A stretch of DNA of 64,000 bases, taken from NCBI GenBank assembly GCA_026416845.1, contig JAOAEL010000001.1, positions 117,940-181,939 of the forward strand, in the 5' to 3' direction. This stretch comes from Patescibacteria group bacterium (lineage in GTDB: Bacteria > Patescibacteriota > Microgenomatia > UBA8517). The notes under the pieces are model-generated. The model saw only the letters and a list, made by a program, of their open reading frames with translations, was not told the origin of the DNA and did not search any database. A program made the translations under genes and the position numbers. Each line of letters starts with the position of its first letter. Position 1 is the stretch's first letter. This document shows positions 3,478 through 64,000 of this stretch, piece by piece.

Positions 3478-4614
3478 TTAAGATATCCAATAACCTCTTG
3501 TAAAAAGCATCACTGTAAGACCTAAAATTGCAAAAAACGAAATAAACATTACATAAACTATACTTTTATTAACTTTGGAAAAATAAGTTGAATAAACAAT
3601 AAAAACCGGAAACGCAGTCAGAACATACCTTGGCAAAGATGAAAAACTTCCCGAGAAAGTCGATAATACAAAAATTAATGCCGAATAAAAAGCGTAAACA
3701 AACTTTTTCTGGATAAATAAAAGAACAATGCCAAAAATAAAAAATATTGCGCTAAACAACTCCAGAAAAACAGTATAAACAAAAGGTAAATAATTTAAAT
3801 CCAAATTTGGTATTATCTTAAAAAAATATCTATAAAGAATCTGCGGGAATAAAATAAAAGTGCCGGCTCTTTGCTCGCCAAAAACTTCTCCCAAATTTTT
3901 GGCAAACAAAAACGGATCTCCAAAATATAAAAACAAATATGCCATATAAACAAACAATCCCAAAGGCGCGATAAACAAACCAAAAAGAAATCTAGCATTA
4001 AATCTTTGTTTTGATAAAAGAAATTCAACCAGCAAAACCGGTATTAATGCTATTCCAGTTATTCTTGTTGCTGTTGACAAGGCACAGAAAATTCCAGCTA
4101 GAAACCACCTTTTTTTCCTAATAAAATAAAATGCCCAAACGGAAAACAACAAAAAAAGAGATTCCGTATAAAAGCTTGCAAAATAAAAAGAGGTTGGAAA
4201 AAGCAAAATAAAAAACAAAAATAACAATTGGTTTACATTTCTGAAATCCAATTTAATTATTTTTATTATCCCATACAAAGCAAAAATCAAAGAAAAATAG
4301 GAAACAAAAAGTCCGATATAAGCCAAATTCTCAAATCTATCACCTGTTAAATTATTCAAAAAAGAAATAATGAAAGGATATAAAGGAAAGAAAAAATGCT
4401 TTAGATTTTGATAGCCATTAGAAGCAATTGACAGGTAATGTTCCCCATCAAAATTAAGCCAAGCATAAGGGTATGGGTTATTTAAGTAATTAGATATTCC
4501 TCCACCCAAAAAATCATACCGCAAAGCAAAAATAAAAATGCCAAAAAACAAAAACATGTTGATAGCAAATAACCACAAAAAAACAATAAAAAATATTTTC
4601 AGAAACATAATCAT
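3478..4614 (-). CDS. Multi-pass membrane protein, probable GT-C fold mannosyltransferase-like (PIG-V/Gpi18-like pattern)
   Basis: Highly hydrophobic 378 aa. WLNFDGEHYLSIASNGY resembles the conserved N-terminal loop of the GPI-mannosyltransferase-2-like family. Assignment is tentative. Confidence 0.4.
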   Translation of the reverse strand: MIMFLKIFFIVFLWLFAINMFLFFGIFIFALRYDFLGGGISNYLNNPYPYAWLNFDGEHYLSIASNGYQNLKHFFFPLYPFIISFLNNLTGDRFENLAYIGLFVSYFSLIFALYGIIKIIKLDFRNVNQLLFLFFILLFPTSFYFASFYTESLFLLFSVWAFYFIRKKRWFLAGIFCALSTATRITGIALIPVLLVEFLLSKQRFNARFLFGLFIAPLGLFVYMAYLFLYFGDPFLFAKNLGEVFGEQRAGTFILFPQILYRYFFKIIPNLDLNYLPFVYTVFLELFSAIFFIFGIVLLFIQKKFVYAFYSALIFVLSTFSGSFSSLPRYVLTAFPVFIVYSTYFSKVNKSIVYVMFISFFAILGLTVMLFTRGYWIS

Positions 4615-24150: not shown

Positions 24151-24967
24151 TTACTTTTTCATTAACAATTTGTAACTCCCAAAGCTTAGCGTACGTAAAA
24201 AACTTGCTCCACATTTGATAAATTGCATATATTATCCCTTCTATACCATCTTTATAGCTTTTTTGGACAATCATTCTAAAAATTAACTCACTAAACATTA
24301 TACGCAAAAATCTCCACCAAACCATTTTAGGATGTTTCGCTTCATATAACATCTTTGCCTCTATCAAAGACCACTTGTTAGTTTTTGTAACCATATCAGT
24401 TAAATTATCATGCTTTAAATGAATAATTGGATTTGTAAGATAACCAAGTTCGCCTTTGTAGACAGGCTCTTCATGCAAATCATTTTTGTAACCAATCAAA
24501 CTTTTTTTAAGAAAAAATCTCTTTTGATAATCAGGCCACTGCCCACCATATCTCATCTCCTTGCCCAAAATAAAATTTCTTCTTGGCACAGCATACGCTT
24601 TTGGCAACGATTTGTCTTCGGATTTAATAATTCCTAATATTTCTTCACCCAAATCATCAGTTAATCTTTCATCCGCATCAAGATAAAAAATCCACTTGCC
24701 CAAAGCTATCTTTAGTCCAGCATTTCTCCAATCGCTATATGATCCGTTTTTTAATTCCAAAACTTTAGCGAAAAAACCTTTTGCTATTTGAACAGTTTTA
24801 TCCATTGAACCGCTATCAACTAAAACAATCTCATCTGCATATTTACTTGCAGATTTAAGACATTCATATATTTTTAACTCTTCATTTTTGGCAATCACAA
24901 TAACACTTAAGTTGACTTTTTTTGCTTTTCTTCTAACAATCGCATTTTTCATACTCAAGATAATCAA
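24131..24967 (-). CDS. Glycosyltransferase family 2
   Basis: LSVIVIAKNEELKIYECLKSASKYADEIVLVDSGSMDKT ... YLDADE is a GT2 signature. Confidence 0.7.
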   Translation of the reverse strand: MIILSMKNAIVRRKAKKVNLSVIVIAKNEELKIYECLKSASKYADEIVLVDSGSMDKTVQIAKGFFAKVLELKNGSYSDWRNAGLKIALGKWIFYLDADERLTDDLGEEILGIIKSEDKSLPKAYAVPRRNFILGKEMRYGGQWPDYQKRFFLKKSLIGYKNDLHEEPVYKGELGYLTNPIIHLKHDNLTDMVTKTNKWSLIEAKMLYEAKHPKMVWWRFLRIMFSELIFRMIVQKSYKDGIEGIIYAIYQMWSKFFTYAKLWELQIVNEKVNESRNL

Positions 24968-25899
24968 ACTTTAAAACTACCTTTGCCAAAATTACCGGCA
25001 TAAAAATCAATTACTCCCCTACGTTGCCATTCTCTGCCAAAAAACAAAAATTTCATAGACTCTCTAAAAAGAGCAAATTTGGCTCTTAAATTGGCATATT
25101 TAAACCCAAATAAAAGCCTGTTTCTTGTAATATAGTAATCATTAAGATCGCTTCCAATACGCGAGCTTTGAGCTACCTTATGCCAAATAACAGCGCTTGG
25201 CACATACAACAATTTAAAGCCATTTTTTTGAATTCTCAAAGATAAATCTGTGTCTTCCAAATACAAAAAATATCTTTCGTCAAAAAACCCAGATTCCAAA
25301 ATAGCCTGTGTTTTATATAAAACACAGGCTCCAGTTGCAAAATCTGTTTTACAGACTTGGTCAAATTGTCCAACATCCATTTGATCAACTCCATGGTTCG
25401 AAGCGTAAACATTATCCCAATCTATGTCGCCACCGGCATACCAGATTACTCTGCCTAAATCTTTTTTTTTGTATCTGTTTTTGTGATATTCATATCCTTT
25501 GGCAAAGTAAATCTTAGGAGACAAAGCGCCAATTTTTTTATCCGTCATCCCAACATCAATCAAATTTTTCAAAAAATTTTTATCAACATATGTGTCATTA
25601 TTTAAAACCAATATATAATCCGCAGATTTTTCAACCGCCATTCGCAAACCAACATTATTGCCGCCGGCAAAACCTAAATTTCTTTTGTTTTTAACAAGAG
25701 ACAAATTAAAAACACTAGATCTAAAAGAACTCACAAAATTTTCAAGTTTCGCAAGCTCAATATTGTTAGAACAATTGTCAACCACTAAAACCTCGATACA
25801 GAAATTTGCTTTATTAATTTTTGCCAGAGATTCCAGACATTCTTTTGTGTCTTCAAATCTATTCCAATTAAGAACAATAATAAAAACGGTCAAACTCAT
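24964..25899 (-). CDS. Glycosyltransferase family 2
   Basis: TVFIIVLNWNRFEDTKECLESL...VVDNCSNN...LNNDTYV is a GT2 signature. It contains an A9 tract in the coding region (25472-25480 on the + strand). Confidence 0.7.
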   Translation of the reverse strand: MSLTVFIIVLNWNRFEDTKECLESLAKINKANFCIEVLVVDNCSNNIELAKLENFVSSFRSSVFNLSLVKNKRNLGFAGGNNVGLRMAVEKSADYILVLNNDTYVDKNFLKNLIDVGMTDKKIGALSPKIYFAKGYEYHKNRYKKKDLGRVIWYAGGDIDWDNVYASNHGVDQMDVGQFDQVCKTDFATGACVLYKTQAILESGFFDERYFLYLEDTDLSLRIQKNGFKLLYVPSAVIWHKVAQSSRIGSDLNDYYITRNRLLFGFKYANLRAKFALFRESMKFLFFGREWQRRGVIDFYAGNFGKGSFKV

Positions 25900-50513: not shown

Positions 50514-50748
50514 GCAAGGAAATTATATTCACTTAGTAAAAATTTGTACATATCAAAAATATCTCCTGCCAAATGCTTCCTTTATCCAAAAAATTCTCTT
50601 GTTTTTTGAACTACATTTTTAATCAAAAGTTTACAAAACTATAAATTCTTCTATCTTCAACTTTGCAATCTTCATTCATGTATATTTGTCAGCAACTTTT
50701 GATACTTTTCAACTTTATTGTTTTGTTTTTGCCACAAATCTAATTCAT

Positions 50749-51192
50749 TTAACTACACCAACAACCTCTTTTATCATCTTTTGCGTTAACCCAAAAAAAC
50801 CAACATCTACCTATATGCATTTCGAGCTCATACTTTGCCAAAAACGCATAGTCGTTTATTTCAAATTCAATCGCATGCGCAAGAGATAAACTAATAAGCG
50901 TTTGAGTGTATATTTTGTCTCTCAGGACTGGTTTCCTTTTGTATATTTTCTTTTTCCAAAATATCTGGCACTTTTTTATTGCGATACATAATAACAACAG
51001 TCACAAAACCAACTTCGCAAGCGCCACATCAATTATCTTTGCGCAAAAATCAGTACCAACAATAAGCTTGTAAACGCTTAACGGATCATCTTTTATAAAT
51101 AAAAATATTTCATTAATAACTCCAGCAAGCGACATCTGACCTTTTGTGGAACTAAAAAAGGCGTTTTTTGGGCTTAACTCAGAGTATAACAA
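50749..51192 (-). pseudogene. Possible gene remnant: 146-codon reading frame interrupted by a single in-frame TGA (51001-51003)
   Basis: ORF-track entries 51001-51192 and 50749-50997 are in the same frame and are separated only by one TGA. There are no recognisable motifs. They lie inside a 767-bp non-coding stretch. Confidence 0.15.
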
Positions 51193-51280
51193 TTTGTTTC
51201 ATAATCCCTCAAAAACAACAACGTACATAAAAGATTATAGCTTGATTAACTAAAATCTTTGTGTTGTATAATAACCAAGC

Positions 51281-53672: not shown

Positions 53673-54860
53673 ATGGTTTGTACCCTTAATTTACGGTTTG
53701 TTTTTCTCATGAAGCAAATATTACTGTCCATCGCCACAATAGCCGCAATAGGAAGCATATCTTTTGGCTTGTCCTCGGCTTTTTTTTCTGACACAGAAAC
53801 TTCGCAGGCAAACTCTTTGACTGCTGGATCTTTTGACCTTTTGTTAAACGGAGGCAACAACACTTCCGCGATTGTGAACATTAATGATTTAAAACCGGGA
53901 GACAATCAAATAGTAGAAAAATCTTTGCGAATAGAAGATAACTCGGGTTATGTTTTCATGCACATAAAAGATCTGTTACCTTCTCAAGGCACGCAAACAG
54001 AACCTGAGATCTTAGAAGAAAATGGCACTCCAAAATTTGACATACAAAACTACATCAAATACGATCTTGAAGCAAACAACCAAACAATCATTTCATTAGA
54101 CAACCAAGTTTTTCTGCCGGAAGTCGTCTCTTGCTGGATACCTCTTGGAGAATTGCCAGGACAAACAAATGTTTCTGTAAAACAAAGTTTTCACTTGGAT
54201 CCGAACGTCACAAATTGGGCACAAGGAGACACGCTTAGCTTTGTTGAAGAATTTTATTCTGTTCAGAGCAGAAACAACTCCAATCCAGCTCCGCCAGTTT
54301 CTTTGACTGGAAGAATTTGGGATAAAAACATCAAAAAGTGTGTAAATTGTCCATCTGGGATTCTTTTTGCCGACGGAGTAGACAGCGCAAATACCAAACA
54401 AGGCACTTTGAAAAACGGCAATCCAATAACAGATCCAAATAGAACAAATCCTTTAAACGCAACAGGACCTAATAACTGGGTAAACGGCACAGGAACAAAC
54501 TTTTTCTCACTGGGAAAAGGAGGGTATATTACTCTGACTTTTTCATCGCCGGTGGTTAACGAACTAGGCAATGATCTTACCTTCTACGAAGCCACAAATG
54601 GCAGAGCGACATATCCTGAAGAGAAAGCGGATGTTTATGTAAGTTTTGATGGAGTCAGCTACTTTTTCATTGGCACAGTAACAAGTGAACCGGGTCCCGG
54701 TGGAGACGGCATTATGGAGTTAGATATCGCGCCTTCGGGATTGCCTTCCATAAAATATGTGCGTTTAATAGACACGACAAATTTCACTCCTCACGCAAAC
54801 AACGCTGACGGCTACGACATTGACGCGGTAAAAGCAAAAAGCGCATGTCTAAAACAATGA
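53673..54860 (+). CDS. Secreted TasA/camelysin-like protein with a SipW-cognate-class signal peptide (alternative start at 53709, MKQILLS)
   Basis: N-terminus ...LLSIATIAAIGSISFGLSSAFFSDTETSQANSLTAGSFDL carries the A-FFSDTETS hallmark of SipW-dependent signal peptides. A NINDLKPGDNQIVEKSLRIEDN core motif is shared with the two paralogs. Confidence 0.7.
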   Translation: MVCTLNLRFVFLMKQILLSIATIAAIGSISFGLSSAFFSDTETSQANSLTAGSFDLLLNGGNNTSAIVNINDLKPGDNQIVEKSLRIEDNSGYVFMHIKDLLPSQGTQTEPEILEENGTPKFDIQNYIKYDLEANNQTIISLDNQVFLPEVVSCWIPLGELPGQTNVSVKQSFHLDPNVTNWAQGDTLSFVEEFYSVQSRNNSNPAPPVSLTGRIWDKNIKKCVNCPSGILFADGVDSANTKQGTLKNGNPITDPNRTNPLNATGPNNWVNGTGTNFFSLGKGGYITLTFSSPVVNELGNDLTFYEATNGRATYPEEKADVYVSFDGVSYFFIGTVTSEPGPGGDGIMELDIAPSGLPSIKYVRLIDTTNFTPHANNADGYDIDAVKAKSACLKQ

Positions 54861-55012
54861 ACAAAAAATCAAAATGGAACAAAAAAGATTTATCAATTTT
54901 CTTAAGTTAAAAAACTTTATCATTTTTGTCACTTCCAAGTCAAAAGCTTAAAGTGGCATGATGACAAAGTTTTTGCAAATCAAAAAAAGGGGGTGAAAAA
55001 AATTAAGTTTAT

Positions 55013-55933
55013 ATGAAAAAGATTTTAATAAGTTTGTTAACAATTGGCGCGGTTGGAAGCCTTGCTTTCGGAGCAACATCGGCATTTTTCTCTGATACAG
55101 AAACGTCAACAAACAACAAAATAGTCGCTGGGAAACTAGATCTGAAAGTTGATAGCACTGCCCATTATGCTGGAATGGTATGTAAAAATAATGTCTGGAC
55201 AGATGAAGATAATGATCAAACAAACAATCCAAGACCTGAACTTCTAGGTAAAACTTGTTCGGGCACTTGGACATCAACCGATCTTGGTCCAACAAATCAG
55301 TTTTTCAATTTGTCAGATGTGAAACCGGGCGACACTGGAGAAAATACGCTCAGTCTTACGGTTTTGGACAATGATGCTTGGGCATGCATTGTAATGAAAA
55401 ATCTTAAAAATGATGAAAATCAATGTACAGAGCCTGAATCTGACCCGCAAAGCGGCAACGACACAACATGCGGAAACGATCCGGTTGGAGCAGGACTGGG
55501 CGAACTTGCTCAAAATCTGTACTTTACAGCATGGTTGGACCAGGGGAATCAAGCAGGTTGGCAAAATTCAGATAATGACAATACAAATGACGATCCGGGT
55601 GAAGGAGATAACAAGTGGCAAGGTCCAACACTTGAACCTTTGTTATTCTCAAACCAACAAGGTCCCGCGTCTGATGTCCTAAATGGAAAAGTATACGCTC
55701 TGGCTGATTCCACAAACGGGAATTATTTAGCTGGTAGCGTTACTAATTACATCGGGCTTCAGTGGTGCGCTGGACAAATGACTATATCTGGAAACACTAT
55801 CAGTTGTAACGGGGCGACAATGGGCAATAATACCCAAACCGATTCCTTGACAGCGGATGTTTCCATTTATGTGGAACAACGCAGAAACAATCCGGCATTT
55901 AAATGCGCCGGGGCGAATCTGCTTCCTAATTAA
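55013..55933 (+). CDS. Secreted TasA/camelysin-like protein with a SipW-cognate-class signal peptide (paralog 2)
   Basis: MKKILISLLTIGAVGSLAFGATSAFFSDTETSTNNKIVAGKLDLKVD, followed by FNLSDVKPGDTGENTLSLTVLDN. Confidence 0.7.
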   Translation: MKKILISLLTIGAVGSLAFGATSAFFSDTETSTNNKIVAGKLDLKVDSTAHYAGMVCKNNVWTDEDNDQTNNPRPELLGKTCSGTWTSTDLGPTNQFFNLSDVKPGDTGENTLSLTVLDNDAWACIVMKNLKNDENQCTEPESDPQSGNDTTCGNDPVGAGLGELAQNLYFTAWLDQGNQAGWQNSDNDNTNDDPGEGDNKWQGPTLEPLLFSNQQGPASDVLNGKVYALADSTNGNYLAGSVTNYIGLQWCAGQMTISGNTISCNGATMGNNTQTDSLTADVSIYVEQRRNNPAFKCAGANLLPN

Positions 55934-55952
55934 TGATTGTTTTTCCAAAAAC

Positions 55953-55982
55953 CCCTCGGGCGAAATTTGTTTCGCCCGAGGG
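55953..55982. terminator. 13-bp perfect GC-rich hairpin (CCCTCGGGCGAAA / TTTG / TTTCGCCCGAGGG) between TasA-like gene 2 and sipW; candidate attenuator or partial terminator
   Basis: Seen directly. The stem is exceptionally GC-rich for this genome. The + strand has no U-tract after it (AAAGGGAG...), but the minus-strand reading is followed by GUUUUUGG. Confidence 0.45.
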
Positions 55983-56062
55983 AAAGGGAGAATAGTAAAA
56001 CAAAAAAAATTGCAATATATCAAATTTAAAAAATTAGGCACAAAAGTTTATGAGATCAGAAT

Positions 56063-57292
56063 ATGAAATACTTTAGGAACTTTTTTTATGTTTTCAAAAA
56101 CGCAAGTTTAATTTTGCTCTTCACAGCGGCTTCATTAATAACTCTTTCACATTTTGGGTATTTAAAAACAATTAAACCATACATTGTTCAATCAGGCTCT
56201 ATGGAACCGTCAATACCAACAGGAAGCGTGATCTTTTCTCTCCATTCCAAACTTTATCAGCCGGGAGACATAATCACTTTTTTTGCAAACGGTGATCCTA
56301 AAACTGTTGTTACACACAGGCTCAATTTCAAAATTTTTAAAGACAATCAAACTATATACATCACCTCTGGAGACGCAAACGAAGACTTTGACAAATGGGA
56401 AGTGAGATATGAGCATATAGTTGGCAAAGTTGTGGCAATCATACCACATCTTGGGCATGTGATCGATTTTGCCAAAACACCACAAGGATTTATAGCTCTT
56501 GTGGTTGTTCCTGCAACAATCGTAATCTATGAAGAACTAAAAAACCTCCTGCGAGAAATTGGCAAGCTCGTTTTGGCAATCAAAATTTTTTTTAAAAAGA
56601 AAAAGGAAGAAAATTCAAGTCTATTTAATTTCGCAAAAAGCGTCAATCTAAATAGAATTTTTGTTTTTGTGCCAATTTTAGGAGTGTTTGTCTTTATAAC
56701 CGCAAATTCCGGAGGATACTTTTTAGATACAGAAAAAAGCGCAGGGAACGTTATAGGAGTTGCAACATCGTATAATTCGCCAACAATAACACCTACCAAC
56801 TCAAACTCACCCTCGCCAACCATCTCTCCTACAAGCACACTACCACCCACAAACACAATAACCGCCACAGCAACGCCAACAACAACTCCCACAATTTCTC
56901 CTATGGTTAAGCTAAACGAAGCCGCGCCTGCAACTAATCCCGAATGGGTAGAAATTTACAACACATACCCTACTGCCGATTTTCTTAAAAATTACTGGCT
57001 TGACGATGACACTAGTTTTACAAGCGACTCAGGAAACTCCCCAAAAGTGCTAATGTCATCGCTTGACACATCGAACACTTTATTCCCAACCATAGACCTT
57101 ACAAATCCAATTTTTAACAATACCGGAGATTTTATAGTTATTTTTGATAACTTGGGAAATCTTGTGGACTCGGTTAATTACACCAGTAATTTTGGCACTA
57201 AATCCATCGGTCGAGAAATTGACGGAACAGGAATATGGAAATTCCCTTGCGCTAATTCAACAAAAGGAGCAAGCAACAACACAAAATGTTAA
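56063..57292 (+). CDS. sipW: SipW-type (archaeal/ER-type) signal peptidase I fused through a Pro/Thr-rich linker to a C-terminal lamin-tail domain (LTD)
   Basis: TM helix, then catalytic-Ser box QSGSMEPSIPTGSVIF, His box TVVTHRL, second TM GFIALVVVPATIVIY, linker TPTNSNSPSPTISPTSTLPPTNTITATATPTTTPTISP, then LNEAAPATNPEWVEIYN...GDFIVIFDNLGNLVDSVNY, which matches the LTD consensus. Confidence 0.8.
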   Translation: MKYFRNFFYVFKNASLILLFTAASLITLSHFGYLKTIKPYIVQSGSMEPSIPTGSVIFSLHSKLYQPGDIITFFANGDPKTVVTHRLNFKIFKDNQTIYITSGDANEDFDKWEVRYEHIVGKVVAIIPHLGHVIDFAKTPQGFIALVVVPATIVIYEELKNLLREIGKLVLAIKIFFKKKKEENSSLFNFAKSVNLNRIFVFVPILGVFVFITANSGGYFLDTEKSAGNVIGVATSYNSPTITPTNSNSPSPTISPTSTLPPTNTITATATPTTTPTISPMVKLNEAAPATNPEWVEIYNTYPTADFLKNYWLDDDTSFTSDSGNSPKVLMSSLDTSNTLFPTIDLTNPIFNNTGDFIVIFDNLGNLVDSVNYTSNFGTKSIGREIDGTGIWKFPCANSTKGASNNTKC

Positions 57293-58311
57293 AAAAGATT
57301 TTTCTATTATCAATATCGACAGCGGCAATTTTAACAGTGATCTTTTGGCACAAAAACACGACAAAAAATGTCTACGCAATAGATCCTCTGATAATAACAT
57401 ACAACAATTCGCCCACACCAAATCCAGTTTTTAATGTGGCAAATTTCTTACCCGGAGACAATAAGATCGAGAAAATTAAAGTAAAAAACAATTTGCCAAG
57501 CGGAAGCTTCGGAGTCTCGGTGGATGGGATATTGGATCAAGAACAAAAAAACTTGGCAGAAATACTACAAATTACTATCACAGAAGTTGGTTTTGGGGAT
57601 ATTTATGGAGGTTCAACTGGCAAAAAAACTCTTAAACAGTTTCTGAACTCGCCACCAATTAACTTGGGAGTATTCCCATCAGGAAGTGAGAAAGAATATG
57701 AATACAAAATATTTTTCCCACATGAATCAGGCAACGAATATAAAAACGGGCATGTTGTCTTTACGCTAATTTTCAACAATTTTATAACAATTGATCTTCC
57801 AAAAGAATGCGCTCACTTGGCAAATCAAATTGTCAACGTAATTGAAGGCACTGAAGGCAATGACAACATACATTCAACCTACCTTAGCGACCTAATACTT
57901 GCCAAAGGAGGTAACGATAAAATCAGAGCTTCAAGCGGAAGCGATTGTATTGTAGCCGGAGACGGCAATGACACAATAGACGCAGGCACAGGCAATGAAG
58001 TTATTTTAGGCGGAGGAGGAAATGACAACATAAGAGGTGGTACAGGAAACGACACTATCTATGGAGGAAGCGGAAATGACAGAATCGACGCGGGAAGCGG
58101 AGACGATGTAGTCTATGGCGATGATGGAGATGACAACATAGAAGGCGGAAGCGACAAAGATAAACTATATGGCGGCAAAGGCAAAGATGACATAAGAGGC
58201 GGAAGCAACAACGACCTTTTAGACGGAGGAGAGGATTTTGACAAATTAAATGGAAATTCCGGCCAAGACACGTGCAAATTCGGCGAAGTGCTTAGTTCTT
58301 GTGAACTGTAA
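57286..58311 (+). CDS. Secreted TasA-like core protein with C-terminal RTX (hemolysin-type) calcium-binding repeats
   Basis: Signal anchor MLKKIFLLSISTAAILTVIFW; FNVANFLPGDNKIEKIKVKNN core shared with the two TasA-like paralogs; then 12 tandem GGxGxDxxx nonapeptides (GGNDKIRAS ... SNNDLLDGG). ATGTTAA overlap with the sipW stop. Confidence 0.7.
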   Translation: MLKKIFLLSISTAAILTVIFWHKNTTKNVYAIDPLIITYNNSPTPNPVFNVANFLPGDNKIEKIKVKNNLPSGSFGVSVDGILDQEQKNLAEILQITITEVGFGDIYGGSTGKKTLKQFLNSPPINLGVFPSGSEKEYEYKIFFPHESGNEYKNGHVVFTLIFNNFITIDLPKECAHLANQIVNVIEGTEGNDNIHSTYLSDLILAKGGNDKIRASSGSDCIVAGDGNDTIDAGTGNEVILGGGGNDNIRGGTGNDTIYGGSGNDRIDAGSGDDVVYGDDGDDNIEGGSDKDKLYGGKGKDDIRGGSNNDLLDGGEDFDKLNGNSGQDTCKFGEVLSSCEL

Positions 58312-58470: not shown

Positions 58471-59061
58471 ATGTTACTCAAAAAGATAACAAGCAGTTTG
58501 GCAACATCTGGCGCTTTGTTGGTGTTGGCAACTGGAGCGGTATTTGCAAGCACAGATGTTACCATCTCGGGAAACGGAGAAGATTCAGTAAACACTGTGA
58601 AAGTTAACTTAACTAACACAACATCCGTTTACCAAAGCAATGCAACAAATGTCAAAAACGATGTCTCATCAAGTGCGTCAACCGGCTCAAACACCATTTC
58701 AAAAACAACAAATGGTAATGCCAAGATAGACACTGGGGACGCGACAAGCATGGTGTCTGTTATGGTTGCCGGCGGGAATAATCACCTGTCTAGCAATCCA
58801 TGCGGATGTGTAAATGGCGAAACGACAGTGACCGTCAAAAATAACGGAGCTGACTCAACCAACAAAGTAAAAGTGAAGTCTAAAAACACTTCACAACAAG
58901 GACAGCACGGAGAAACAAATGTATCAACATCTGTTTCTTCTAAAGCCAAAACCGGTAAAAATAAGGTTAAAAAAGCCACCGGTGGCAATTCTGAAGTCAA
59001 AACAGGTGACAGCGAAAGCGCCGTGTCTGTAATAGTAACCGGAGGCCATAATTATTTGTAA
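58471..59061 (+). CDS. Secreted two-repeat protein of an unrecognised N/T/S-rich repeat family (TGDA family)
   Basis: Signal peptide MLLKKITSSLATSGALLVLATGAVFA. Two ~80-aa repeats, each ending ...TG.N.....T.GN.....TGD..S.VSV.V.GG.N.L, plus a CGC pair. Strong RBS AAAGGAGGTG before the ATG. Confidence 0.6.
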   Translation: MLLKKITSSLATSGALLVLATGAVFASTDVTISGNGEDSVNTVKVNLTNTTSVYQSNATNVKNDVSSSASTGSNTISKTTNGNAKIDTGDATSMVSVMVAGGNNHLSSNPCGCVNGETTVTVKNNGADSTNKVKVKSKNTSQQGQHGETNVSTSVSSKAKTGKNKVKKATGGNSEVKTGDSESAVSVIVTGGHNYL

Positions 59062-59082: not shown

Positions 59083-59122
59083 AAAAAACCTCCTGCCTAA
59101 GCGTAGGGGGTTTTTTATTTTT
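59083..59122. terminator. Bidirectional rho-independent terminator between the convergent 58471(+) and sortase(-) genes
   Basis: AAAAAA-CCTCCTGC-CTAA-GCGTAGGGGG-TTTTTTATTTTT: an 8-bp stem (with G-U pairs) flanked by an A-run on one side and a T-run on the other. Confidence 0.55.
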
Positions 59123-59129
59123 AGATAAA

Positions 59130-59681
59130 CTAGTCGACGGACAAAACAACAACCAATCTCTTGGAATCTTTATAGCCGCTACAAGTATACAAGGTAAGCT
59201 TTTTTTCTTCGCTCGATGGCGCAATAATTTTTGTATCCGTTGGCAAAACTTCCAAAACATCATCAACTTTATATTCAAACCAAGTTTTATTAGTTAAAAC
59301 AAAAACAGAGTCTCCTTTTTTTATATACTTTAAATTGCCAAACAAATTATCTTTTGCATGCCCAAATATGACCACATTGCCAATTTCTCCTGGATATGCG
59401 GACCCTACACCCCATCCAGCTTTATCATCAAACACCTCCCAATAACCACTTTTTACAAAAGATACTTGGACATTAACATTTAGTTTAAGATCTGGAATAA
59501 GTATTTTTTGCGGGATTTTTTCAGCGTCAATTTCATTGATTAAAGCAAATTCTTCCAGTGTTGCAACTTGATTAACAGATAAAACTGAAGCGTCCGCTTT
59601 TGGTTTAAACAAAAGCAACAAAACGCCAAGGGCAAAAAGACAAATGCCTATTGTAATTTTAGAAGGGTAATTTATTCTCAT
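59130..59681 (-). CDS. Sortase (cysteine transpeptidase), with an N-terminal membrane anchor
   Basis: Catalytic His in VIFGHAKDNLFGN, TLxTC-type Cys in KLTLYTCSG, Arg in RLVVVLS. The start is taken at the second Met (MRINYPSK); 59708 is also possible. Confidence 0.8.
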   Translation of the reverse strand: MRINYPSKITIGICLFALGVLLLLFKPKADASVLSVNQVATLEEFALINEIDAEKIPQKILIPDLKLNVNVQVSFVKSGYWEVFDDKAGWGVGSAYPGEIGNVVIFGHAKDNLFGNLKYIKKGDSVFVLTNKTWFEYKVDDVLEVLPTDTKIIAPSSEEKKLTLYTCSGYKDSKRLVVVLSVD

Positions 59682-60810
59682 TTTCACTCGCTTTTCCCGC
59701 CGAATCAATTATCATACCCAAACCCAAAACCAAAAACAAAATTCCAAACAAATAATTTAGATCCAAACTTTTTTCGCTTGAAGTTTTTGAAAGGCCCAAA
59801 ATTTCTCCGCCGCCAATGGCATTTTCGCCCAAAAAACTGGTTTTGCTTAAAAAATTTGCGTTATTGTTGTTTGCAGATCCGTCGTTTGGATTTTTAATGA
59901 TTGAATCTTCAGGAACAGTCGGAGGGTCATCAGGATCATCCCCATTATCAAAAAAACAACAATTAAAACTAATAAAATTTGAATTTATATAATCATTTCT
60001 TAAAAGAATATCTAAAAAAATATCGCCTGTAATTATTGCCGAATCTCCCAAATTGCCGCCAATGAAATTTTCACCACTATTTGCGTCAACAAAAACTTCA
60101 TTTAGAATCACTGAACTATTCTCAACAAAAACATTATTTTTTAAATTTTTGAAATTGTTTGCGCTACTCCCACCGACATAAGCGTTGTCAATAAACCTGA
60201 AACTTGAAGCATCTTCTGAAAGATTGGCAGGCAAACTAGAAATAGATGAATTAATTGGACCATTTTTTACAGATGTTACAACTTTTACATCCCCTGTTGT
60301 TATTTTTGTATTGCGAGAATTATCATTTGCTTTATTGAGACCAGTGTTTGCAACCCCAACAATTTTAGTTTTAATTACAGCGCTATTTTGAGAAACAAAA
60401 TTATTTGACAAATTGCTTGAAGAACTAACTGTATTTGTTGAATTAGAACCATTGTTATTAATGTTAACCTGCTGGTTTATCTTGGCAGTTTCACAACAAT
60501 TATCTTTAAAACCATTTTGATTTGATAAATTAATCGCGGTCTGACTAATTTTCGCGTCGCCAGTTTTTACGTTAACTTCATCTCCACTTTGATCAATTAA
60601 ATTTGATCCGGTGTTTGTATTAGAAAAGACATCGTTTTGAATAGATGAGTTGTTTGTTTGCAAAACATTTACCGAATTTGACAATTGAACAATCGCCTGA
60701 CTTGAAGAATCGGAACCGTTATCAGATATCGTCAACTCATACCCAAGCGCACACTTTGGTTGACATAAAAATATGAAAAAAAAGATTAGAAAAACAAAAA
60801 ATTTAGACAT
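59659..60810 (-). CDS. Secreted repeat protein, TGDA family (paralog)
   Basis: Signal peptide MSKFFVFLIFFFIFLCQPKCALG. Repeats ISDNGSDSS...NTNTGSNLIDQSGDEVNVKTGDAKISQ and NNGSNSTNTV...ANTGLNKANDNSRNTKITTGDVKVV. Has a CC pair and a C-terminal hydrophobic segment without LPxTG. Confidence 0.6.
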   Translation of the reverse strand: MSKFFVFLIFFFIFLCQPKCALGYELTISDNGSDSSSQAIVQLSNSVNVLQTNNSSIQNDVFSNTNTGSNLIDQSGDEVNVKTGDAKISQTAINLSNQNGFKDNCCETAKINQQVNINNNGSNSTNTVSSSSNLSNNFVSQNSAVIKTKIVGVANTGLNKANDNSRNTKITTGDVKVVTSVKNGPINSSISSLPANLSEDASSFRFIDNAYVGGSSANNFKNLKNNVFVENSSVILNEVFVDANSGENFIGGNLGDSAIITGDIFLDILLRNDYINSNFISFNCCFFDNGDDPDDPPTVPEDSIIKNPNDGSANNNNANFLSKTSFLGENAIGGGEILGLSKTSSEKSLDLNYLFGILFLVLGLGMIIDSAGKASENENKLPF

Positions 60811-60872: not shown

Positions 60873-63221
60873 TCACTTTCTCGAGAACATCGCAAGTATA
60901 GCGTTTTTGTTTTTTGCAATAAATAAACCCGTGAAAATTGGGATTAATGTCAGAAGCCATGCAAGATTTATGTTGATAGTTTTTTTCTCATTTCTGATTT
61001 CAGCACTTTCAACAAAGGCGTCTACATCACCAACAATCCCAGTTTCGCTTTGATCTTTAGAACCTGAAAATGCCAAAACTGATTTGTTGGAATTACTAGC
61101 TTTTTTCGATATCGCTTTATTTGAAAAAATCTTTTTATTTGATTCTTCCTTCATATTTGTAACTTCATTATAAACCTGAAAACCGGAAGTGTTTGGGTTT
61201 GCAAGAGTGCTACTTTTGTCTTTTTCGGCTACTCCTCCGCGTCCACTATCGTTAACTGAAGATGGCTTCGAACCAACATAATCAGGAGAGACAAAATTAC
61301 CAACCCAACTGCCAAACACATTTACAACTGTCACGAATAATCTGCCGCTACCGACTATATTGTTATTTACAAAGTTAACCAAATTGGCAACAATGTTTGC
61401 GTCTCCGGTAACAATATTTGTATTGCCACCGGTATTTTTGCTTGCCTGATTTTTGCCAGTATTAGCCGAAAGATTCAAATTATTAGTGACATTTGCAGTG
61501 TTTGATTGAACAATTGTATTGTTTGCGATTGAAGAGCTAAAAGCATTGTTAAATGAATTTGCGCCATTGCCATTATTTGAAGCATAAATTTCTCCATTTT
61601 CATCAACTAAAAACTCAATCCCATTTGATCCAGCCAAATTTGCGCCTTCAGGAGACCCCAATATTCTACCAACCCAATTTCCAGCCTGATTAATAAGAAC
61701 AAGCCACCAATCCCCGCCAACTATATTTGTGTTTGCAACATTGATAACTTGCGCAGTGACATTTGCATTCCCTGAATTAACAGTGTTATTGCCATCTGTA
61801 TTTTTACTCACTTCGTTTTCACCCGTGTTGGCGTCAAAAAACAAGTTGTTGTTTATATTGGCATTATTAAACTGATACAACTGATCGTTTGAACTGACAC
61901 TTGCATCCGCAGTGTTTGTAGAGTGTGCGCCATTGCCTGTATTTTGAACATTGCCAGACAAAAGACAACAAGGCAAACCAAATCCGAAAGGAGCAATTAT
62001 GTCTCCAACCAAATTGCCAAAAATATTTACAACACCATAAATCACATTGCCAGCTATGTTATTGTTTACAAAAGTCAAAGCGTTTGCAGAAACATTCGCA
62101 TCGCCAGTGGTAATTGTCACATCTCCGCCAGTATTTTTATCCGCATAATTTTTGCCGGTATTGGAATCAAGCTTAAGTGTGTTCAAAACCACAGCATCGT
62201 TAGTCTGAAATTTATTTGTGTTTAGCGCATAATCAAGCAAAGCGTTATTCGAAGAATTCGCGCCATTTTGATGGTTGGCAACATTACCTCCACCCAAAGT
62301 TGAACAGTTAACTATGCACGCATTGCCAAAATCCAAAACAATATCCCCAATGTGATCATCTTCAACATTAAACTCTGCAATAACCACCCCATCAACATTT
62401 GTGTTGACAGAAGTAATAATAGTGCCAGTTGTATTTGCGTTGCCTGTTTTAATGTTTACATTGCCAACATTTTTGGAAGCGGAATTTCCGCCAGTGTTAG
62501 TATCTTGAGAAACTGAATTTATAACAACAGCTTTATTGTCTTGAATTGTGTTTGAATTATTTTCAGAAACAAAAGCTCCATTGTTTGCAGAACCAGATCC
62601 ATTGCCTTCATTAACAACAGCAGAAGCACCACCTGCCAAGCCGGTAGGCACTGCCGATAAATTGCTGTTTGCAACCACAGCTCCGGTGACAGAATTTGTC
62701 GCATTGCCAGTTCTTAGATCAGTTTTACCCGAATTTCCATCTGAGTTTTGTCCCCCTGTAGAATTATCAACAGCCAAACTTTTAGGAGAAACTGAAGAAG
62801 ACTGCTGGTTCTCAGCAGGTGAACTTGAATTATCTGAAGCGGCAAAATCAGAGTTAATTGATCTATCTCTTTTTGTTTTTTCATTTGAACTTTCTGAATT
62901 TTTTGGTTTGGAATTATTACCAGATTGATCACCTTGAGAAGAACCAGAATTTTGGCTATCTGGCAAATTATTTAGACTGCCAGAGGGAATGGTAGGAGCA
63001 GTCGGGGCAACAGGAGGAATTGGAGCCGCAGGTGGAGTTGGAGACAAAGGCGGAGATGGCGCGTTGGGAGCCATAGGCGCCGACGGAGCAACCGGAGCGC
63101 TTGGCACTGATGGAATTTCAGAAGCCAAAACCCCTGCCACTTGCACAAATAAAATTACAAATATAGTAAAAAGGGCAATTATTCTTTTAGTTATACTTTT
63201 TATAAATTTTATAAATTGCAT
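60873..63221 (-). CDS. Large (782 aa) secreted surface protein: Pro-rich N-terminal tract, four or five ~110-aa TGDA-family repeats, and a C-terminal hydrophobic anchor
   Basis: Signal peptide, then PSVPSAPVAPSAPMAPNAPSPPLSPTPPAAPIPPVAPTAPTIPSG. Repeats such as LDSNTGKNYADKNTGGDVTITTGDANVSANALTFVNNNIAGNV and LSANTGKNQASKNTGGNTNIVTGDANIVANLVNFVNNNIVG. C-terminal LAWLLTLIPIFTGLFIAKNKN. Confidence 0.65.
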   Translation of the reverse strand: MQFIKFIKSITKRIIALFTIFVILFVQVAGVLASEIPSVPSAPVAPSAPMAPNAPSPPLSPTPPAAPIPPVAPTAPTIPSGSLNNLPDSQNSGSSQGDQSGNNSKPKNSESSNEKTKRDRSINSDFAASDNSSSPAENQQSSSVSPKSLAVDNSTGGQNSDGNSGKTDLRTGNATNSVTGAVVANSNLSAVPTGLAGGASAVVNEGNGSGSANNGAFVSENNSNTIQDNKAVVINSVSQDTNTGGNSASKNVGNVNIKTGNANTTGTIITSVNTNVDGVVIAEFNVEDDHIGDIVLDFGNACIVNCSTLGGGNVANHQNGANSSNNALLDYALNTNKFQTNDAVVLNTLKLDSNTGKNYADKNTGGDVTITTGDANVSANALTFVNNNIAGNVIYGVVNIFGNLVGDIIAPFGFGLPCCLLSGNVQNTGNGAHSTNTADASVSSNDQLYQFNNANINNNLFFDANTGENEVSKNTDGNNTVNSGNANVTAQVINVANTNIVGGDWWLVLINQAGNWVGRILGSPEGANLAGSNGIEFLVDENGEIYASNNGNGANSFNNAFSSSIANNTIVQSNTANVTNNLNLSANTGKNQASKNTGGNTNIVTGDANIVANLVNFVNNNIVGSGRLFVTVVNVFGSWVGNFVSPDYVGSKPSSVNDSGRGGVAEKDKSSTLANPNTSGFQVYNEVTNMKEESNKKIFSNKAISKKASNSNKSVLAFSGSKDQSETGIVGDVDAFVESAEIRNEKKTININLAWLLTLIPIFTGLFIAKNKNAILAMFSRK

Positions 63222-63297
63222 ATAATTTTTTTGTATTTTTTAGTTTCTTTACTTTAAAAAATTTTTAAACTTTATTTTTTATCTTCTACCTTCTGGT

Positions 63298-63335
63298 TTT
63301 GGGTGATCCGTCGAAGTGCAAACGAATCACCCAAA
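63298..63335. repeat. Perfect 10-bp inverted repeat TTTGGGTGAT ... ATCACCCAAA with an 18-nt loop, between two repeat-protein genes
   Basis: Read directly from the sequence. It lies 3' of the 63354 gene and 5' of the 60873 gene. No U-tract on either strand, so it is more likely an operator or RNA-processing hairpin than a classical terminator. Confidence 0.4.
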
Positions 63336-63353
63336 TACCTTATAAAGGCTGGT

Positions 63354-64000
63354 CTACCCCATAAGGAATTCCAAAAGATCTCTCAAATTAAACGAAATGT
63401 TTAAATTGAAACCATACATTGGAAATTCCCATTCAGGAGTTTCACCATAAACATTGGAATTACCACCGTTTGTAACTTCCACATAGCTTTCGGCATCACC
63501 GGTTTTGATATAAGGATCTGATCCATCATAACCAGTTCCTTTCTTGGATTCGTTATAACCAGTGCCTGCGTCAGCATAAACTAAATTGTCGACACCGTAA
63601 CCGCCATTTGATTGAAAAACGCCAAGAGAGTCATCAAAGACTGCTTCAATGTCGTTTCTCGAATCATAACCATTTCCATGGATTTTTGCCAAAACATCAA
63701 AAAGACATCCGCAATCAACGTCTGCCCAATTGAAGTTTGTCATTGTGTCAACAACCACATCCACAGTGGCATCTCCTGTCTCTATGACAAAGTCACCACC
63801 TGTGTTTTTGTTTGCTTTATTGGAACCAGTTCCGGCATCAACATCAACTTTGTTGTAAACAGAAGCTGAGTTGTTTTGCACAACATTTAGATCGTGACCA
63901 AAGTCTAGATCCAAATCGTTTCTGCTATCAGCGCCGTTTCCAACAACCCAAGCGCTAAGAGTTTTGGCTCCGTTTCCGTTAGCACCAACTCTTGCAGAAT
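63354..64000 (-). CDS. Partial CDS (C-terminal part; N-terminus lies beyond the window end): secreted repeat protein, TGDA family
   Basis: The frame is open to the window edge: ...NGNGAKTLSAWVVGNGADSRNDLDLDFGHD is upstream of the ORF-track TTG start. Repeats DAGTGSNKANKNTGGDFVIETGDATVDVVV and DAGTGYNESKKGTGYDGSDPYIKTGDAESYVEV, plus a CGC pair. Confidence 0.55.
   Translation of the reverse strand, partial: SARVGANGNGAKTLSAWVVGNGADSRNDLDLDFGHDLNVVQNNSASVYNKVDVDAGTGSNKANKNTGGDFVIETGDATVDVVVDTMTNFNWADVDCGCLFDVLAKIHGNGYDSRNDIEAVFDDSLGVFQSNGGYGVDNLVYADAGTGYNESKKGTGYDGSDPYIKTGDAESYVEVTNGGNSNVYGETPEWEFPMYGFNLNISFNLRDLLEFLMG

Follow-up and report, generated by a model that had tools for sequence, protein, structure and literature searches.

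A conserved stem-loop without a U-tract between a TasA-like gene and the signal peptidase gene sipW in Patescibacteria

The locus

The hairpin described here lies within a string of five co-directional plus-strand genes of the window, by which we mean the whole stretch of 64,000 nucleotides that was analysed (Table 1). Two genes for TasA-like proteins are followed by the gene for a SipW-type signal peptidase, an RTX-repeat protein gene and a gene for another repeat protein. The string closes at a canonical terminator, behind which a sortase gene follows in convergent orientation. Judging from this layout the five genes probably form an operon, and the closing terminator shows that the organism does use U-tract terminators. 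The preliminary description of this DNA had placed the hairpin between TasA-like gene 2 and sipW, and the domain matches on both sides agree with this (TIGR04088 and PF12389 upstream, TIGR02228 downstream). It starts 20 nt past the stop of TasA-like gene 2, which ends in tandem stop codons (TAA TGA), and 80 nt separate its end from the ATG of sipW. A consensus scan detected no convincing plus-strand promoter between the hairpin and sipW, so that expression of sipW probably depends on read-through. TasA-like gene 1 does not have a comparable hairpin at its 3' end, the best structure in 54861-55012 reaching -13.6 kcal/mol, and in this it differs from gene 2 and from most of the homologues. A strong hairpin behind TasA-like genes is therefore not a universal rule.

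Table 1. Coordinates of genes and sequence features around the hairpin
Feature	Position	Strand	Basis and remarks
TasA/camelysin-like gene 1	53673-54860	+	PF12389; 395 aa, extra C-terminal domain
Promoter-like TTGTCA-17-TAAAGT, upstream of TasA-like gene 2	54926-54954	+	Consensus scan; suggestive only
Strong Shine-Dalgarno-like GGGGGTGA, ahead of TasA-like gene 2	54989-54996	+	Read from sequence; suggestive only
TasA/CalY-like gene 2, 306 aa	55013-55933	+	SipW-dependent signal peptide TIGR04088 (E 6.5e-8); PF12389
Tentative lower stem, 5' strand AUUGUUUUUCC	55936-55946	+	Minimum-free-energy and centroid folds; begins 3 nt past the stop
T5-CC-A5 element directly 5' of the hairpin	55940-55951	+	Yields antisense U5; conserved in relatives
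Hairpin, 5' arm CCCTCGGGCGAAA	55953-55965	+	Sequence, fold, perfect-stem scan
Hairpin, tetraloop TTTG	55966-55969	+	Sequence; 1-nt insertion here in L001, stem untouched
Hairpin, 3' arm TTTCGCCCGAGGG	55970-55982	+	Sequence, fold, perfect-stem scan
Purine-rich, Shine-Dalgarno-like tail GGGAGAAUAGU; tentative lower stem, 3' strand	55986-55996	+	Fold
SipW/archaeal-type signal peptidase I fused to lamin-tail domain	56063-57292	+	TIGR02228 (82 bits), NF046067 (84 bits), PF00932
RTX-repeat protein gene	57286-58311	+	
196-aa repeat protein gene	58471-59061	+	
Bidirectional intrinsic terminator, A6-stem-T6, canonical	59083-59116	.	Consensus scan, fold scan

Several further observations concern the neighbourhood. 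The peptidase carries a long C-terminal extension, which consists of a Thr/Pro-rich linker and the lamin-tail domain, and the same fusion is found in the related loci L001, L002 and L205. The 196-aa repeat protein has two paralogs encoded on the minus strand (59659-60810 and 63354-63914), all three sharing the repeat N.V.N.V...A.TG.N......G...I.TGDA. The first and the second of them gave no match in Pfam or NCBIfam, while the third is 35% identical to the first. These paralogs adjoin the sortase gene (59130-59708) and resemble an uncharacterised family of surface proteins. Between divergent genes at 50514-51280 there is a gap of 767 nt with no open reading frame of at least 110 aa, unusually long for such a compact genome, and neither a tRNA nor an Rfam match was found in it.

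Structure and rarity of the hairpin

The stem comprises 13 uninterrupted pairs, nine of which are G-C, around a loop of four nucleotides (CCCTCGGGCGAAA-TTTG-TTTCGCCCGAGGG), and its folding energy as RNA is about -26 kcal/mol. The plus strand of the surrounding 141-nt intergenic stretch folds with z = -5.9 and none of 200 dinucleotide shuffles folds as well, the minus strand of the same 141 nt reaching z = -4.35 against dinucleotide shuffles. In a sliding scan of 44-nt folds over both strands of the window 55953-55982 ranks first, and no other perfect stem of at least 9 bp has more than 5 G-C pairs. At the composition of the window (33.7% GC) 4e-6 hairpins with 13 perfect pairs, at least 9 of them G-C, are expected by chance, and 40 block shuffles of the window gave neither a stem of 13 bp nor any stem of at least 8 bp with more than 5 G-C pairs. 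A second copy is not present in the 64 kb, whether searched exactly or with up to two mismatches, and no exact copy came up when public metagenome contigs were scanned. The looser core pattern CCTCGGGCG-N8-14-CGCCCGAGG retrieved from the metagenome contigs, among the matches listed, only unrelated contigs with more than 50% GC. No family of Rfam 15 matches the window or 20 relatives at the gathering threshold; with E values up to 10 there are only generic-hairpin matches far under threshold.

On the sense strand the stem is followed by AAAGGGAGAA (also given as AAAGGGAG), which does not contain a single U. The U-rich tract of 7-9 nt immediately behind the stem that characterises a sense-strand intrinsic terminator is thus absent, and the plus strand received no terminator-like call. 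Read on the antisense strand, the stem is followed by GUUUUUGG, in the context GGGG-TTTTT-GG. The consensus scan accordingly reports a terminator-like site on the minus strand (14 pairs, 9 of them G-C, tail TTTTTGGAAA), which is its top match of this kind. It makes this assignment because the T5 tract sits on the antisense side. The preliminary description had given the sequence of the hairpin exactly as we find it. Its statements that a chance origin is very unlikely at about 33% GC and that a sense-strand U-tract is missing are borne out by the numbers above, and folding of the region, which it had proposed as a check, gives a stable stem. It had overlooked the U-tract of the antisense strand.

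In the predicted folds of the sense RNA the hairpin stands on a lower stem of 11 pairs (55936-55946 with 55986-55996). Four of these are G-U pairs, so that this stem could form in the sense RNA only. Its 5' strand aligns with helix P0 of the motif R1 described below. The lower stem was not recovered by RNAalifold in the consensus of the four sequences of the hairpin type of the window, and therefore it stays tentative. The 80 nt 3' of the hairpin contain more G than C, are A-rich and are not rut-like. Therefore, a Rho-dependent end with subsequent trimming is not specifically indicated and such a processing step is hypothetical.

Two other roles of the site were considered and rejected. The purine tail is 66 nt away from the ATG of sipW and does not qualify as its ribosome-binding site, and stop-codon read-through or recoding by the hairpin is at odds with the tandem stops in the window. 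Read-through was also rejected for the R1 family, where the in-frame extension is short and variable. The window contains additional palindromic structures in other contexts, namely a strong minus-strand hairpin of -21 kcal/mol at 3867-3910, inside the coding region 3478-4614, and a perfect 12-bp palindrome at 25303-25330 (AGCCTGTGTTTT/AAAACACAGGCT), inside the coding region 24964-25899.

Conservation in relatives

The protein encoded by TasA-like gene 2 has 545 homologues, nearly all of which belong to Patescibacteria. Looking up the exact protein gave no record, and the nearest genome in the collection that was searched is GCA_025057695.1 (a 5.9-kb contig). At the orthologous site, three loci have a hairpin of the same type. 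In L001 (99% protein identity) the stem is intact and the only changes are an insertion of one nucleotide into the loop and one substitution in the tail. L002 (77% protein identity) has the same gene order from the CAP-domain gene through to the sortase gene, and its site reads TTGTTTTTCTAAAAAT-CACCTCGGGCGG-aagaagtgc-CCGCCCGAGGTG. Here the core CCTCGGGCG is retained and both ends of the stem are altered on both sides, a C-G pair at the base having become A-U and an A-U pair further inside G-C. In L207 (56% protein identity; GGGTTTTTAGAAA-TCCCTCCGGAGG-TTTT-TCCGGAGGGA-CGGAG) a G-C pair has been replaced by C-G and a C-G pair by A-U. Thus, the inner arms diverge (GGGCGAAA, GGGCGG, CGGA) and the pairing is maintained. 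The RNAalifold consensus of the four sequences has ten pairs, of which three show compensatory double changes in L002 and L207 and none is broken. As there are only four sequences of this type, the covariation rests on three pairs. Compensatory changes at an orthologous site indicate selection on the pairing and not on the sequence. The T5-CC-A5 element is retained in L001, reads TTTTT-CT-AAAAA in L002 and is partial in L207 (TTTTT-AG-AAA). Both L001 and the 13 kb that were read from the 43-kb contig of L002 contain one orthologous copy each. In L205 (59% protein identity) different strong hairpins stand after both TasA-like genes, including one just before the gene for the SipW-lamin-tail fusion. 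The hairpin of the window is a real, non-random and conserved feature, and the conservation in relatives, whose absence the preliminary description had listed among the refuting conditions, extends to proteins of 99%, 77% and 56% identity.

The arms and tails of these structures partly resemble signals of translation. The 3' arms and tails of L002 and of the window (55970-55996) contain GAGGUG, GAGGG and GGGAG, similar to strong Shine-Dalgarno sites, but the following start codon is too far away for such a role. The 5' arm of the L002 hairpin (L002:6983-7016) contains AUCACCUC, which we take to be the sequence of the anti-Shine-Dalgarno end of 16S rRNA.

Hairpins behind TasA-like genes across the phylum

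The wider distribution of such hairpins was surveyed in 80 Patescibacteria loci with relatives, obtained by a genome scan. Open reading frames were called crudely, TasA-like genes were recognised by their AFFSD-type SipW signal, and each gene was scored by the best 46-nt hairpin within 110 nt past its stop codon. The median energy of this best hairpin is -21.9 kcal/mol for the 124 TasA-like genes compared with -12.0 kcal/mol for the 284 other genes (Mann-Whitney p = 1e-15), and hairpins at -15 kcal/mol or better number 94 and 102, respectively. Among the strong hairpins, at least five T in the 8-nt tail occur in 1% of those behind TasA-like genes and in 15% of the others, an A-rich head, corresponding to an antisense U-tract, in 9.6% and 6.9%, and at least one G-U pair in sense orientation in 88% and 73%. 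The 8-nt tail contains on average 5.4 purines behind TasA-like genes and 3.8 behind the others. From these contrasts it follows that the general object is a stem-loop of the sense strand that lacks a U-tract and accompanies the 3' ends of TasA-like genes, irrespective of which gene comes next. A similar structure is present elsewhere in the window: the minus-strand hairpin at 63294-63337 (UUUGGGUGAUUCG...CGGAUCACCCAAA; -21.9 kcal/mol as a 44-nt fold and -25.9 kcal/mol as a 46-nt fold) is strong, lacks a sense U-tract and has a purine-rich tail. The repeat-protein gene 63354-63914 ends with a TAG stop about 17 nt before this hairpin, and 60873-63221 comes after it. It resembles the L205 hairpin after a TasA-like gene.

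In about 30 species of Patescibacteria a conserved motif, here called R1, begins at the stop codon of the TasA-like gene, which is mostly TAG. Its consensus is cTAGUCYUCU-CUAGCC-GUWC-(covarying 11-bp stem)-GYGG-GCUG-purine-rich loop-CAGC, as for example at L028:3894-3962. The R1 loci are L008, L010, L017, L020, L023, L024, L027, L028, L032, L034, L037, L040, L043, L048-L052, L056, L064, L066, L071, L073, L074, L078, L079 and L084. RNAalifold and pair counting over 27 sequences found 97% of the cells paired, with 111 double-change cells compared with 31 in shuffles and none of 500 shuffles attaining 111. All 11 pairs of helix P2 covary and the core of P1, UAGCC...GGCUG, is nearly invariant. At one pair 23 of the 27 sequences have U-G, and scores of the R1 model on the minus strand are far lower; the U-G pairs fix the sense strand. 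The covariance model has 48 plus-strand matches in the loci, about 42 of them directly after an open reading frame with a SipW-type signal, and most matches stand before another paralog with such a signal. A further hairpin, P3 (GCUGN...N'CAGC), can be formed in 34 of 38 instances compared with 38% of shuffles, and its fifth and sixth pairs covary. Because P1 and P3 both need the same GCUG, they are mutually exclusive. R1 matches no Rfam family, and in the literature searched we found no description of it.

The relation of the window hairpin to R1 is one of likeness in position and in topology. Both follow the stop codon of a SipW-dependent gene, lack a U-tract and have G-U pairs that point to the sense strand, and both consist of a pyrimidine-rich 5' flank, an internal loop, a long G-C-rich upper stem and a purine-rich 3' flank. 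However, the invariant UAGCC/GGCUG core, the GUW/YG internal loop and P3 are features of R1 that the window hairpin does not have. With default filters the R1 model does not match the window. With the filters off it matches 55936-55998 (+) with 15.7 bits and a rough E value of 0.003, which is the best match within 11 kb, compared with 42-79 bits in the sequences from which the model was built and 41-70 bits in the further strong matches. In this alignment P0 and P2 find their counterparts and P1 is absent, all of its five pairs being non-standard or gapped, and no complementary segment that could act as P3 exists downstream of 55996 in the window. Hence, the window hairpin is a positional and topological analogue of R1, and membership in R1 fails on the defining core. 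That it is a diverged member of an as yet undescribed class of structured 3' RNA elements marking TasA-like fibre-subunit genes across Patescibacteria appears rather unlikely. In R1 itself P2 covaries, the core is invariant and the helices P1 and P3, in an element that starts at the stop codon, exclude each other, which points beyond a passive barrier. An element of the R1 type could be a switch or processing signal that is coupled to translation termination and would set the expression ratios of tandem fibre paralogs and peptidase.

Function of the hairpin

Most likely, the hairpin would protect or end the mRNA of the subunit, and subunit would thereby be produced in excess over peptidase. 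Our preferred reading, to which we tentatively assign a probability of roughly 45%, is that it is a sense-strand 3' stabiliser or decay barrier that belongs to TasA-like gene 2. RNA polymerase would mostly pass the hairpin, because there is no U-tract, and the 3' end would then arise by cleavage in the A-rich spacer or by termination further downstream. Exonucleases degrading from 3' to 5' would halt at the stem of -26 kcal/mol. As a consequence the subunit mRNA would outlive and outnumber the mRNA of sipW-LTD and the RTX gene, and the cell would obtain much fibre subunit and little peptidase. The transcript ends, the block to exonucleases and the effect on stoichiometry are what we infer for the hairpin. 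The reading is suggested by the stability, uniqueness and improbability of the stem, by its compensatory conservation, by the habit of TasA-like genes across the phylum and by the precedent of selective RNA processing and stabilisation (SRPS) in Clostridium, discussed below, as well as by the position 20 nt past the stop of a gene with a strong Shine-Dalgarno-like sequence in a co-directional string. Against it stand the antisense position of the sole canonical terminator signature found here, the lack of such a hairpin at gene 1, the 80 nt downstream, which are not rut-like, and the small number of covarying pairs, three in all.

The same positional and comparative evidence would also fit a leaky terminator or attenuator on the sense strand, at which the stable hairpin pauses and partly releases RNA polymerase, perhaps helped by NusA/NusG or another factor, so that only a fraction reaches sipW. 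The probable need of sipW for read-through is in accord with this, and internal terminators that set stoichiometry in ABC-importer operons are reported (PMC9045158). However, the tail AAAGGGAG is entirely without U, and where operons truly end this organism uses a canonical U-tract terminator (59083-59116). Mycobacterial RNA polymerase is reported to require a U-tract at intrinsic terminators (PMC3993855), which argues against efficient termination by a hairpin alone. We therefore regard the attenuator as rather unlikely. A U-tract is available on the opposite strand, where the hairpin and GUUUUUGG could end an antisense or small RNA that begins within the 5' end of sipW or close to it, or could shield the highly expressed subunit gene from antisense transcription. 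A G-C-rich stem and a U-tract are both present in this direction, the scan ranks the site first, the T5 is retained in L001 and L002, and an RNA started at a weak promoter-like site at 56097-56070 (-) would be about 115 nt long. Yet the five genes around the hairpin all read in the plus direction with no minus-strand gene upstream, and promoter matches of this quality are at chance level (46 found, 38 expected). In L207 the antisense tract has decayed to UUUCU and the hairpin is retained. The relatives also speak against a minus-strand function: the A-rich head is present in only 9.6% of their hairpins behind TasA-like genes, and the G-U pairs in 88% of them would turn into A-C mismatches in an antisense RNA. 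As the predicted lower stem, too, could form in the sense RNA alone, a minus-strand terminator appears quite improbable.

The hairpin could furthermore be part of a larger cis-regulatory RNA acting on the downstream genes. A ribosome at the stop codon might melt the pyrimidine strand 3 nt away and free the Shine-Dalgarno-like purine strand, resulting in a translation-coupled switch; alternatively, the structure might be a processing site of the RNase III type or might protect the sipW transcript at its 5' end. The two-tier fold with its pyrimidine 5' strand and purine 3' strand would suit such a device. The R1 family at the same position has the mutually exclusive P1 and P3, the latter covarying, and the unfiltered R1 model places its best match in 11 kb exactly here. 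Still, the window has a counterpart of neither P1 nor P3, the lower stem is missing from the four-sequence consensus, and the purine strand is too far from the sipW start codon for a ribosome-binding site. This makes a larger regulatory RNA in the window unlikely to a similar degree as the minus-strand terminator. A perfect intergenic palindrome beside a possible sipW promoter might also be an element of the DNA, either an operator to which a regulator binds or a repeat of the REP-like or mobile kind, as the preliminary description had considered. The arms drift while the pairing stays, which excludes an operator palindrome. A single copy in 64 kb together with selection on pairing at an orthologous site excludes a REP-like repeat. 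With no copies elsewhere in the loci of the relatives and no exact ones in the public metagenome contigs scanned, the probability left to any such DNA-level element is very small indeed.

Among the three roles that had been proposed at the outset, the comparative evidence thus favours the two acting through RNA, the attenuator and the 3' stabiliser, and the compensatory changes speak against a protein-binding palindrome; no repeat copies turned up in the 64 kb. The proposal that the hairpin sets the stoichiometry of subunit and peptidase fits the strong U-tract-less hairpins after TasA-like genes throughout the phylum. Its comparison to tapA-sipW-tasA, in contrast, has no documented basis in the literature searched. 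We found no internal attenuator documented there for the Bacillus sipW-tasA genes, and the order in Bacillus is reversed, sipW preceding tasA.

Patescibacteria are uncultivated episymbionts with reduced genomes, and to our knowledge almost nothing is known about their control of gene expression. Of their surface-structure loci, those for TasA-like fibres and a dedicated SipW peptidase belong to the most frequent. If the preferred reading, a 3' stabiliser of the subunit mRNA, is true, the conserved RNA device would be a concrete and testable case of post-transcriptional control of stoichiometry in these organisms. Terminator predictors that require a U-tract would miss such elements or assign them to the wrong strand. 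The association across the phylum and the motif R1 are a more novel result than the hairpin and lie outside the window. R1, which is not represented in Rfam, lends itself readily to work on the structure and processing of RNA.

Comparison with known systems

The window hairpin is an intercistronic 3' stem-loop and as such belongs to a known type of device, here found in a little-studied phylum. In the Rhodobacter puf operon, at the REP element between malE and malF of Escherichia coli and behind the pilin gene papA, hairpins that follow the gene of the major subunit block 3' exonucleases. By such decay-terminating hairpins the upstream segment of the polycistronic mRNA becomes more stable than the downstream genes. 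We know of no relation in sequence between any of these hairpins and that of the window, and the malEFG element is a dispersed repeat, whereas the window hairpin is present once in 64 kb. In phage T7 the RNase III signals such as R1.1 lie between cistrons. They combine a lower and an upper stem, about 24 bp in total, with an asymmetric internal loop between the two, and cleavage there provides the upstream mRNA with a protective hairpin at its 3' end. The window has the same arrangement of lower stem, asymmetric internal loop and upper stem between cistrons, its lower stem being predicted only. With Rho-independent terminators the hairpin shares the G-C-rich stem and the tetraloop just past a stop codon, but it has no U-tract on the sense strand and the U5 is on the opposite one. 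Conserved 3' stem-loops without a U-tract have been reported as the trimmed ends that remain after Rho-dependent termination (PMC13613805). They resemble the window hairpin in being conserved, covarying, close to the stop codon and free of a U-rich tract; they differ in that a 'bubble' with more C than G follows downstream, compared with the 80 A-rich nucleotides with more G than C in the window. In the literature searched we found no prior description of RNA motifs of TasA, SipW or camelysin genes or of terminators of Patescibacteria.

The closest parallel that has been tested are the stem-loops of the Clostridium SRPS. Within operons there, the ratio between the transcripts of adjacent genes correlates with the folding energy of the stem-loop that stands at the 3' end of a strongly expressed subunit gene (PMC4423207). 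A stem-loop of -24 kcal/mol without poly(U) that was placed between two reporters gave a ratio of upstream to downstream transcript more than 200% above that of poly(U)-tailed stem-loops, and according to the published rule a stem-loop without poly(U) and with at most four U in its tail is a stabiliser (PMC8219983). The tail of the window hairpin, AAAGGGAGAA, has no U at all, and the arrangement is also that of the SRPS, a stem-loop of -26 kcal/mol between co-directional genes that end at 55933 and start at 56063. Like the stabiliser stem-loops (SSLs) in the cip-cel operon of C. cellulolyticum (about -24 kcal/mol there), the hairpin is stable, has no poly(U) and occupies an intergenic position 3' of the gene of an abundant structural subunit. 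Unlike the Clostridium SSLs, it belongs to Patescibacteria, and its stem is perfect and unusually rich in G-C pairs for a genome of 34% GC. The role in stoichiometry, which has been shown for the Clostridium SRPS, is the one that we propose for the hairpin of the window.
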